From contig OZ244042.1 in the NCBI GenBank assembly GCA_965215015.1, positions 2,784,001-2,848,000 on the forward strand: DNA of 64,000 bases. The letters are read 5' to 3'. Below, in pieces: positions 9,224 through 12,105 of the stretch (its first letter is position 1; each line of letters opens with the position of its first letter). This stretch comes from Candidatus Poribacteria bacterium. Its GTDB lineage: Bacteria > Poribacteria > WGA-4E > PCPOR2b. The notes beneath the pieces were generated by a model. The model made no database searches and was not told where the DNA came from. It worked only from the letters and a program-made list of their open reading frames with translations. The translations under genes were made by a program, and so were the position numbers.

Positions 9224-9253
9224 TTGCCTTTGTGTGGGTGTATATGCTAAAAT
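9224..9253 (+). promoter_or_regulatory. Sigma70-type promoter for the leader/thrC-like transcript
   Basis: TTGCCT (9224-9229), 18-nt spacer containing TG, TAAAAT (9248-9253), i.e. an extended -10. Confidence 0.6.
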
Positions 9254-9298
9254 TAAATGATTTTGTAATTAAACAACATAGGTAAGCCAATTAGAAAG

Positions 9299-9436
9299 AT
9301 GCGGCAATCTCACTTCAATTTTTCTCCAATTCGCCACTTTGTCCCCTTCGCAAATACGACCATGTACATGCCTAGCATGGGCATTGCTGTTGCGGTGTCC
9401 ATGCGTGCGGAGCAAAGTGAAAATAGGCAACTTTAG
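9299..9436 (+). CDS. Putative Met-rich attenuator leader peptide (45 aa)
   Basis: MRQSHFNFSPIRHFVPFANTTMYMPSMGIAVAVSMRAEQSENRQL*. Four internal Met codons plus a Thr-Thr pair; its 3' end overlaps the antiterminator strand. Confidence 0.7.
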   Translation: MRQSHFNFSPIRHFVPFANTTMYMPSMGIAVAVSMRAEQSENRQL

Positions 9437-9491
9437 GTATGAATCGGGATTGTTTTTAATATATATGCTCTACAGAATTGCCTATTATCAC
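9417..9491 (+). promoter_or_regulatory. Antiterminator pairing
   Basis: GTGAAAATAGGCAACT (9417-9432) is complementary at 14/16 positions to 9476-9491, which includes the 5' arm of the terminator. Confidence 0.75.
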
Positions 9492-9513
9492 GGCCGTGAT
9501 AATAGGCTTTTTT
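9480..9513 (+). terminator. Intrinsic terminator in the 5' leader (attenuator)
   Basis: Perfect 12-bp stem GCCTATTATCAC-GGCC-GTGATAATAGGC followed by T6, about 110 nt before the ATG at 9621. Confidence 0.85.
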
Positions 9514-9620
9514 ATTGTCCACATCTTTTTTAACGAAACGGTCAGTCAATATGGTCTGGAAAAATTGACAGACTATTTGCTAACAGAGTTTTCTTATATT
9601 TTGATCCAACGGAGACGAAT

Positions 9621-10853
9621 ATGACAGAAAAAGTACTGGGATTGAAATGTCGTGAATGTGGGAGGCAGTATCCTAAGGAACCTCTCCATGTGTGTGAATT
9701 TTGTTTTGGCCCACTTGAGGTAGATTACAACTACGAAGTCATCCAGAAATCAATTTCACGAGAATCCATTGAACGAGGCCCCGAAAGCCTCTGGCGCTAT
9801 GCCGACCTACTGCCAATCGATGGTGAGCCGACCGATGGATTTAATTCAGGGTTTACCCCTTTAATCCGCGCCAAAAATCTGGAAGCGGTGCTCGGTGTGG
9901 AGGCACTTTATATCAAAGATGATTCGGTGTGTCACCCGACCCTCTCTTTCAAAGATCGTGTTGTGGCGGTTGCGCTGAGTAAGGCAAAGGAGTTTGGGTT
10001 TGATACCGTTTCGTGTGCTTCAACCGGCAACTTAGCCAATTCGGTCGCAGCAAATGCAGCCATTGCGAATCTCAACTGCTTCATCTTTATTCCTGCCGAT
10101 TTAGAGATGGGGAAAGTGGTGGCTTCGCTCGTTTACGCCCCGACGGTGGTCGGAATCGCAGGCAATTACGACGATGTCAACCGATTATGCAGCGAGATTG
10201 CCGGTGTTTACCCTTGGGCGTTTGCCAACATCAATATCCGGCCGTTTTACGCAGAAGGCTCCAAAACCTTCACCTATGAGATTATCGAACAACTCGGTTG
10301 GGAAGCACCAGATCATATTGTTGTGCCTGCAGCGGGCGGTTCGCTTATCACAAAAGTGGGCAAGGCGTTGAAAGAGTTCCATACATTGGGACTGATTGAC
10401 AAGCCACAAACACACATCCATGTTGCACAGGCTGAAGGTTGTGGGCCAATTGCCACAACAGTCAAGGAGGGCAGCGATTTTGTCAAGCCCGTTAAACCGG
10501 ACACCATTGCTAAATCCCTTGCAATCGGCAACCCTGCCGACGGAATCTATGCCGCTGCAACGGTGCGGGATTCAGGGGGGTACGGGGAACATGCAAACGA
10601 TGAGGAAATTGTCGAAGCAATCAAACTCCTTGCCGCGACAGAAGGCATCTTCACTGAAACGGCAGGAGGTGTCACGCTTGCCGCAGCGAGAAAGCTAATC
10701 GAAAGCGGACGCATCAACCGAGATGAGCGAATTGTTGTCAGCATCACCGGCAACGGACTGAAGACCATCGAAGCACTTGAAGGACGAGTGCCCGAACCCC
10801 ATGTGATTCAACCACAACTGAACGCATTCCGAAAATTGATGACGATGCTTTAG
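9621..10853 (+). CDS. Threonine synthase-like PLP enzyme with N-terminal Zn ribbon (ThrC or O-phosphohomoserine sulfhydrylase type)
   Basis: CRECG...CEFC, PTLSFKDR (PLP Lys), ASTGNLA, EGSKT, ITGNGLK. Confidence 0.88.
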   Translation: MTEKVLGLKCRECGRQYPKEPLHVCEFCFGPLEVDYNYEVIQKSISRESIERGPESLWRYADLLPIDGEPTDGFNSGFTPLIRAKNLEAVLGVEALYIKDDSVCHPTLSFKDRVVAVALSKAKEFGFDTVSCASTGNLANSVAANAAIANLNCFIFIPADLEMGKVVASLVYAPTVVGIAGNYDDVNRLCSEIAGVYPWAFANINIRPFYAEGSKTFTYEIIEQLGWEAPDHIVVPAAGGSLITKVGKALKEFHTLGLIDKPQTHIHVAQAEGCGPIATTVKEGSDFVKPVKPDTIAKSLAIGNPADGIYAAATVRDSGGYGEHANDEEIVEAIKLLAATEGIFTETAGGVTLAAARKLIESGRINRDERIVVSITGNGLKTIEALEGRVPEPHVIQPQLNAFRKLMTML

Positions 10854-10925: not shown

Positions 10926-12105
10926 ATGAATTTTTTCGACACAATAGAAATGGCCCCCCCCCGACCCCATCTTGGGACTTAACGCGGCCTTCAAGGCGGA
11001 TCCGCGGCCCAACAAAGTGAACCTGAGCATTGGTGCTTACAAAACCGATGACCTCCAGCCACTTGTGCTTGCAGCGGTCAGGAAAGCAGAGCAGCAAATC
11101 ATCACAGAGGGTATGGATAAGGAGTACCTCTCTCAAGATGGGGACCCAGAATACGTGAAGCATTCCATCAGACTGGTATTCGACACAGAGCAAGATAATA
11201 TCTTTGGGGCACAGGCACCCGGGGGGACAGCCGGTATAAGACTCGCCGGGGAGTTTCTCGCTCAAATTGGAAGTCAAGTCATCTACCTCCCGGACCCGAC
11301 GTGGGCAAACCACAACCAAGTGTTTACAAGAGCAGGATTGCAGGTTGAATCATATCCGTACTATGATGCGGAGCGCAGGGAATTTACCAAGTCGCGTATG
11401 GTAGAAGCGATTAAGTCCATCCCTAGTGGAAGCCCAATTCTGCTTCACGCCTGCTGTCACAACCCAACCGGGCTCGACCCCACACCAACAGATTGGAAAG
11501 AACTTTCAACAGCCATCAAGACACGGGGGCTGCTGCCGGTGTTTGACTTTGCCTACCAAGGTTTTGGGCAAGGTATTGATGAAGATGCAATGGCAGTCCG
11601 TTATTTCCTGGCTGAGGGCCATCAGATGCTTGTTGCAAATTCCTATTCCAAAAACTTTGGACTTTACGGAGAGCGGACGGGCGGATTCTATGTTGTTACA
11701 GCCGATGCGGACTCTGCTGAAAGGGTCAAATCTCAAATTATGCGAATTATCCGTGCCAACTACTCGAACCCACCTCTGCACGGTTCACGTATCATTGCAA
11801 CGGTGCTCGCTTCCGACACACTCAGGCAGGAATGGGAAACCGAACTGGCGGCCATGCGGGAGCGAATCTCCGGGATGCGCCAGGCGTTGGCTGAAGGCTT
11901 AAAGGCTGGCGGTAATTCAGTTGATTTTAGCTTTATGTACAAGCAGAACGGGATGTTCTCTTATTCCGGGCTCTCCAAAGCCGCCGTGGATCGACTGAAG
12001 GAAGAATATGCTATCTACATGCCGACAAACGGTCGCCTGAATGTGGCAGGATTGTCGCCTAAGAACTTGAATTACGTTGTAGAAGCAATCTTGGCGGTGC
12101 TGTAA
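10926..12105 (+). CDS. aspC: Aspartate/aromatic aminotransferase class I, with a +1 frameshift in a C9 run at 10954-10962
   Basis: GAGGAG RBS, then MNFFDTIEMAPP/DPILGL joined only if the run is C8. Contains CCHNPTG, DFAYQGF, SYSKNFGLYGER. Confidence 0.85.

Follow-up and report, generated by a model that had tools for sequence, protein, structure and literature searches.

A probable methionine-codon leader attenuator before a MetM-like gene in Poribacteria

The window, which is the whole stretch of 64,000 nucleotides of Candidatus Poribacteria DNA that was analysed, very probably carries a ribosome-mediated transcription attenuator that would sense charged elongator Met-tRNA and control the gene for a MetM-type homocysteine synthase (here called metM). 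The proposal was reached by sequence comparison, from the conservation of a short leader ORF, its enrichment in Met, its helices and the gene context. From these we infer that the leader is translated and that stalling of the ribosome is coupled to transcription. The features are as follows.

9224..9253, + strand: promoter-like site, sigma70-type, with a TG-extended -10 (TTGCCT-18-TAAAAT; 9 of 12)
9299..9436, + strand: leader ORF of 45 codons, MRQSHFNFSPIRHFVPFANTTMYMPSMGIAVAVSMRAEQSENRQL, with an A-rich 5' flank and without a Shine-Dalgarno sequence; stop codon at 9434-9436
9304..9317, + strand: segment A, the 5' strand of long-range helix P1, leader codons 2-7 (RNAalifold)
9335..9341, + strand: CACTTTG strand, pairs with 9413-9419; a minor, genus-level helix
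9362..9403, + strand: control region, M-x-M-x-x-M...M, with ATG codons at 9362, 9368, 9377 and 9401
9375..9404, + strand: hairpin B, 13 bp, in which Met27 pairs with Met35; a candidate for pausing or slowing the ribosome
9417..9432, + strand: segment C, the antiterminator strand, spanning the final codons of the leader; 14 of its 16 positions pair with 9476-9491
9440..9453, + strand: segment D, the 3' strand of P1, directly 3' of the leader stop codon (RNAalifold)
9480..9513, + strand: intrinsic terminator, with a 12-bp stem (9480-9507), a 4-nt loop and T6 (9508-9513); -17.1 kcal/mol
9621..10853, + strand: ThrC-family PLP enzyme with an N-terminal CxxC...CxxC; scores above the TIGR00260 cut-off and starts 107 nt 3' of the terminator

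As the original prediction had claimed, the sequence contains the ORF with its Met codons, the terminator, and a 16-nt segment that is complementary to the terminator arm at 14 positions. Hairpin B and the covarying helix P1 had been missed.

On the basis of these features, we hypothesise that when Met is plentiful the ribosome would pass the four AUG codons, reach the stop codon at 9434-9436 and cover segment C (9417-9432). The terminator would then form, and the gene 107 nt downstream would be left untranscribed. When Met is scarce, the ribosome would stall within 9362-9403 and leave segment C free, its first nucleotide being 13 nt past the last Met codon. Free C could pair with the 5' arm of the terminator, and RNA polymerase would continue into metM. 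If the leader is not translated at all, P1, acting as a protector, would most likely favour termination.

The leader ORF across Poribacteria

Four internal Met codons are found in the 45-codon frame, in the list of ORFs and on reading the sequence. In 12 representative leaders (one per genus with a recognisable ORF, picked by the analyst), Met makes up 55 of 439 residues, which is 6.5-fold the proteome rate, compared with 2.5-fold for Cys, 2.0-fold for Arg and 1.2-fold for Thr; related genomes are not independent, and these enrichments and the conservation counts given below are therefore descriptive and are not P values. Thr is missing from one leader of f8, which belongs to another order. 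The original prediction was of a leader sensing Met, or possibly Met and Thr together. Met, which is both enriched and conserved in frame, would thus appear to be the signal, and Thr would not. A rough genome scan found 27 short ORFs before terminators, among which the window leader alone has more than one internal Met. The window's genome has three tRNAs with a CAU anticodon, one of them with initiator-like features. The literature search located no paper on the relative charging of CAU-anticodon tRNAs under Met starvation.

The gene downstream of the leader is present in 61 of the 61 genomes of the first search, and the upstream DNA of all 61 was read. The closest orthologs are 92-97% identical. 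In the window's family (f1), 25 of 29 genomes, from six genera, have a frame with at least four internal Met codons. The 24 f1 leaders that were aligned have 129 ATG codons in frame, counting the starts, against 3 out of frame. The length from the start to the last Met codon is a multiple of three in every one of the 24, the indels being of 3, 9, 12 and 3 nt, while indels between the stop codon and the terminator, where the length is 36-46 nt, are not bound to the frame. Extra Met codons have been gained at new, unpaired positions, giving MTMYM, MLMSM and MLMDM.

The f8 proteins are 70-73% identical. At all six f8 loci for which there is upstream DNA, the leader has 5-6 internal Met codons, one example being MNCRHSVPQIDRMAMPSGMRAMRMPHDGHGGGRCR (a seventh contig begins inside the gene and was left out, and L104 and L165 have the same leader, which was counted once). 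The M-x-M-x-x-M pattern is common to the window leader and the f8 leaders (MAMPSGM/MVMRRGM). A covariance model built from the window's family detected 0 of 8 f8 leaders, and so Met has outlasted nucleotide similarity. Terminators are found at four of the six f8 loci and not at the other two.

At L161 and L162 a Met-rich leader without a terminator lies about 140 nt upstream of the gene. A 10-nt stretch of this leader pairs across the ribosome-binding site and start of the gene, which suggests that these two leaders may act by translational attenuation.

The metM leader of four g5 genomes keeps segment C and the terminator and has lost the Met codons and the frame. In f3 the terminator is kept in 11 of 11 leaders and a shorter ORF is found in 10, nine of which have Met at codon 8 or 10; nine of the ten have only one or two internal Met codons, and one has none. 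One f3 leader reads through the terminator and one lacks segment C. No leader was found before the gene in f2 (0 of the 17 loci that were read and 0 of 98 searched with the model), in f4 (0 of 7) or in f7 (0 of 1). A scan of 53 ortholog loci for a Met-rich short ORF with a terminator gave one, in Poribacteria, and none in other phyla.

The six family genera shown have an A-rich stretch before the leader and no Shine-Dalgarno sequence; purine-rich stretches precede some f8 leaders. The promoter that had been proposed at 9224-9253 gains nothing from the scan of the window alone, which is not above chance (2 found against 3.0 expected), but its TG-extended motif occurs upstream of the leader in 19 of 20 genomes of the genus, against 1 of 19 other leader-bearing genomes tested. 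In four members of the genus (L002, L010, L015 and L016), 55-170 nt are inserted between the promoter and the leader, which is itself intact. At L165 the leader ATG is 8 nt 3' of the -10 hexamer, and this leader may therefore be leaderless.

RNA pairing and modelled ribosome positions

RNAalifold, run on the 24 leaders, predicts the terminator, hairpin B and P1. The leader RNA (9290-9515) folds more stably than all 200 dinucleotide shuffles, with z = -4.1. All 12 pairs of the terminator stem are formed in every one of the 24 aligned leaders. The 14-nt core of segment C makes 13 of 14 pairs with the terminator arm in the window, and the antiterminator is 92% paired across the 24 family leaders; this pairing of C with the arm was matched by 0 of 300 leader shuffles. 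No compensatory change in the antiterminator was found within the family. Between the orders, the antiterminator and the terminator arm have changed together, being ATAGGC/GCCTAT in the window and GTGGGC/GCCCAC or GTGGGT/ACCCAC in f8, where the 3' arm of the terminator has changed as well, alongside C and the 5' arm. The comparison of orthologs thus bears out the original prediction, which had looked to them for Met-rich upstream ORFs and covarying alternative stems.

P1 (9304-9317 with 9440-9453) is 95.5% paired, with 7 cells changed on both sides, and was matched by 0 of 500 shuffles. In the window's family it lies about 15 codons 5' of the stall site. Hairpin B is 99.4% paired, with one double change, and was matched by 25 of 500 shuffles; it pairs Met27 with Met35, and so constraint on the RNA contributes to the conservation of both. 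The helix between CACTTTG and CAAAGTG, to which the original prediction had given a part, does exist in the window but is the weakest of the elements, with 85% of its cells paired and 1-5 of its 7 pairs formed in four other genera. The protector would instead be P1. A CATGTACATG palindrome was considered as a repressor site and rejected, because it is broken in two genera that keep both Met codons.

Both of the originally proposed states were folded, and the outcome depends on the RNA allowed to fold. With only the RNA 3' of the ribosome folded, a ribosome at the first or the last Met codon leads to capture of the terminator arm in all 24 leaders (median P 0.87-0.88). A ribosome at the stop codon leads to weak capture (median 0.37-0.41), with pairings of 0 to -4.9 kcal/mol, whereas the terminator itself has about -15 to -17. 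The picture is mixed when the upstream RNA is free to fold too: the antiterminator is often lost at stalls, its probability at Met27 being close to 0 in roughly half of the loci, and with the ribosome at the stop codon other pairings take the terminator arm (P 0.5-0.8). This arises because nested folding does not allow P1 and the antiterminator together, although the two could coexist as a pseudoknot. When the start region is blocked, the antiterminator is restored in 22 of 24 leaders, compared with 10 of 24 for naked RNA. The exclusion and the rescue together mean that P1 is best read as a protector. In the g11 leaders of f3 (L023-L060), the start region can pair either 3' of the antiterminator strand or with the base and top of the terminator. 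Single-sequence folds of the four f8 leaders that have a terminator pair the 5' part of the ORF with the RNA after the stop codon or with C.

The effect of the block implies that occupancy of the start site matters in the model. It would also be expected of a translated leader that reports something other than elongator Met-tRNA, be it failure of initiation with fMet-tRNA, the general rate of translation or arrest by the nascent peptide, and the few internal Met codons of f3 and two g5 metM leaders with an AUG just 5' of C would fit such a leader too. However, the peptide is not conserved between orders except for Met, and it is the internal Met codons that are enriched 6.5-fold. Arrest of the plant CGS1 type, which is caused by an excess of SAM, would have the wrong sign, because here a stall gives read-through. 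A signal of this kind is therefore very unlikely, and charged elongator Met-tRNA remains the preferred one.

The strength of the RNA helices might argue for a switch made of RNA only, either an uncatalogued riboswitch for SAM or Met or a leader that binds a protein, with P1, hairpin B and the antiterminator doing the work and the AUG codons as by-products of self-pairing CAUG words. P1 covaries, Met27 and Met35 are paired in hairpin B, the ORF has no Shine-Dalgarno sequence, in g5 the Met codons are gone from leaders that retain C and the terminator, and the actinomycete metM is controlled by a SAM riboswitch. Such a switch is nevertheless highly improbable, since it does not account for indels that preserve the frame or for new Met codons at unpaired positions, and since the diverged leaders retain Met and share no aptamer-like core. 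Rfam gave only sub-threshold terminator-hairpin matches at the leader in the window, none of them at the gathering score or with a meaningful E-value. It also gave no match at the gathering score in 40 ortholog loci outside the family or in 14 leader loci, which agrees with the exclusion of SAM and T-box elements foreseen in the original prediction. The same search does detect a SAM-I riboswitch before the actinomycete homolog, and it found none in the window's genome.

The sister leaders bear on the same question. The terminator pattern occurs three times in the window's genome: before metM, ileS and the DAHP synthase gene. The ileS leader (G000:C1:3255203-3255403, L155) has a Shine-Dalgarno sequence, an Ile run, GIISIIIIIP, and a terminator of the same family as that of metM. 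The DAHP synthase leader (G000:C1:1801110-1801310, minus strand, L156) is rich in Tyr, Leu and Phe (LYFLYLYLFLLYL), and its terminator is of the same family too. A Shine-Dalgarno sequence is present before the ileS and aroF leaders, unlike the Met leader. The control codon in these leaders changes with the pathway of the regulated gene, which fits leader-peptide attenuation and is not predicted by an aptamer.

A second copy of the Met leader was detected by the covariance model before the methionyl-tRNA synthetase gene (metG) in 4 of 4 g5 genomes (L199-L202), and this copy keeps the Met codons, P1, C and the terminator. In two of these metG leaders the original start is ACG, and a later ATG opens a frame of 15-17 codons. 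Among 30 metG loci read, five have a Met leader and a terminator, four of them in g5 and one in an f4 genome (L224:1238-1400). The f4 leader, MSLELTTFTLAFLICQRVSAIIMIFMMVELNGG, looks unrelated, and this genome has no leader before metM. Neither nhmmer nor the covariance model found a second copy in the window's genome, where metG has no leader.

Relation to known systems

Among the amino acids sensed by leader peptides methionine is a gap: its usual sensors are SAM riboswitches, T-boxes or repressors, and the translation of a Met leader cannot even start without Met. The classical leader-peptide attenuators are trpL, hisL, thrL, leuL, pheL and ilvL. The Met leader resembles them in having a short ORF rich in the amino acid of the pathway, an antiterminator over the end of the ORF and a terminator before the gene, and also in being placed before aminoacyl-tRNA synthetase genes. 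It differs from them in that its control codon, AUG, also starts translation, and in that the leader has no Shine-Dalgarno sequence. Its putative protector strand is about 15 codons 5' of the control codons and pairs 3' of the stop codon, in place of a local 1:2 hairpin, and the leader matches no Rfam leader family. Vitreschak et al. reportedly predicted in 2004 that a thrA leader of Pasteurellales responds to Thr, Ile and Met. That would be a mixed signal acting on a shared upstream step, whereas here the signal would be Met only, and it would act on a step specific to Met and on metG. The classical attenuators are summarised in the available parts of PMC8079986 and PMC2965389, and no Met leader is mentioned in the available part of the latter.

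The original prediction regarded the regulatory type as undescribed. This holds in so far as no tested Met-only leader attenuator was found in the literature searched, which was mostly outside subscription journals. It does not hold entirely, since the accessible text of PMC8079986 contains a proposal that the metL leader of Streptomyces lividans (MSTTSDRTPATEATTTPGARCMCRRMCAF), before metNIQ, is Met-dependent, without a terminator. That leader holds two internal Met codons in a peptide with many Thr and Cys residues and bears no evident sequence resemblance to the window leader; the text gives no comparative or functional test of it. What would be new here is a Met version of classical leader-peptide attenuation, the terminator-less metL proposal being the only one of its kind located in the literature searched. 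In the Actinobacteria, the methionine operons have no conserved RNA element upstream, according to the available part of PMC1262725.

A wider reading is put forward tentatively, and it may well not survive in full. It is that Poribacteria have a portable family of Met-only leader attenuators, which would replace SAM riboswitches on metM, would have been copied to metG and would get round the difficulty that Met is also the amino acid of initiation. Only a ribosome at the start region would open P1, and read-through would then require both continued initiation and a stall at the internal AUG codons, which amounts to a two-ribosome test for a shortage of elongator Met-tRNA. In one lineage the leader would appear to have become a translational switch, by which the ribosome-binding site of the gene is hidden. 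A Met-only leader is conserved in two orders, before a biosynthetic gene and before metG, and the window's genome has sister leaders for Ile and for aromatic amino acids. It offers a compact construct for asking whether internal AUG codons stall ribosomes while initiation goes on.

The regulated gene

The gene was originally described as threonine-synthase-like. Judged by sequence, its product is most likely MetM, a homocysteine synthase that depends on a sulfur carrier, and for such a gene Met makes sense as the signal. The presumed activity is suggested first by gene context. A gene for a MoaD-type carrier ending in AGG lies directly 3' in 43 of 45 orthologs outside Poribacteria (47 outside orthologs were examined, of which 45 had enough downstream DNA). 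In the window's genome the carrier, 55-68% identical to the outside carriers, lies about 200 kb from metM with a JAB-type gene beside it, and hom, thrC and lysC form a cluster of their own, in which thrC, between hom and the aspartate kinase gene, scores higher as threonine synthase.

The pathway around the enzyme was also searched. No match to the MetX or MetA models was found in the window's genome, which is 98% complete. It has one PLP enzyme of Cys/Met metabolism, with its best score as methionine gamma-lyase, and matches to MetH in four separate pieces, as in a split methionine synthase (G000:C1:381126-390464 and 525191-526048). The cysK-like, cysH-like, MoaD-type carrier and JAB-type genes lie in a row (G000:C1:2996691-2999652; L062, L157). 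This carrier (G000:C1:2997229-2997510) has a short tail past GG that needs trimming, and the adjoining JAB-type gene scores below the curated cut-off.

An actinomycete homolog with 51% identity sits between a SAM-I riboswitch and the same carrier, compared with 32-34% for the other paralogs in the genome. The tree node joining the window protein with the actinomycete protein has support of only 84/84, and the window protein may be an ortholog of the characterised MetM of S. albulus (UniProt A0A059WBP2). Complex prediction for the enzyme with the carrier of its genome gave 0.36, against 0.00 for the best control, a weak pass that lends weak support (among solved pairs 116 of 157 reach the mark, among mismatches 2 of 215; at least 50% of contacts agree between runs, and the pLDDT of the partner is at least 79). 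No close solved structure was found, and the PDB entries that match best are ordinary threonine synthases, which lack the first 55 residues.

In S. albulus, MetM and MetO make homocysteine by a thiocarboxylate route (Hasebe et al. 2024, as given in the available parts of PMC13759103 and PMC12172450), and metM there has a SAM riboswitch-enzyme-carrier arrangement (PMC12172450, available part). The likeness to the window's genome extends to the ThrC-like PLP enzyme, the MoaD-type carrier, a putative carrier-maturing protease of the JAB type in the genome and regulation of the enzyme gene by the Met pathway. They differ in that S. albulus has a SAM riboswitch and an adjacent metO, whereas the window's genome has a Met-codon leader and its carrier about 200 kb away, after the cysK-like and cysH-like genes.

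A joint Met and Thr attenuator of a true threonine synthase is extremely unlikely: two Thr codons do precede MYM in the window leader, the TIGR00260 thrC cut-off is passed, and threonine synthase and deaminase activity is on record for a cyanobacterial homolog (PMC12172450, available part), but Thr is at 1.2-fold and missing from one f8 leader, a higher-scoring thrC lies with hom and lysC, the carrier is linked in 43 of 45 orthologs, and MetM is frequently misannotated as threonine synthase (GapMind 2026, in the available part of PMC13759103).

With MetM as the preferred assignment, the leader provides regulatory evidence that a large clade of 'threonine synthases' is MetM, and that an uncultured lineage without a match to MetA or MetX makes homocysteine by means of a protein sulfur carrier.

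Downstream of metM (window 10929-12105) is an aspartate/aromatic aminotransferase that lacks the first 13 residues of the model. An ATG lies in a different frame at about 10927, and there may be a frameshift or an assembly error near 10960.
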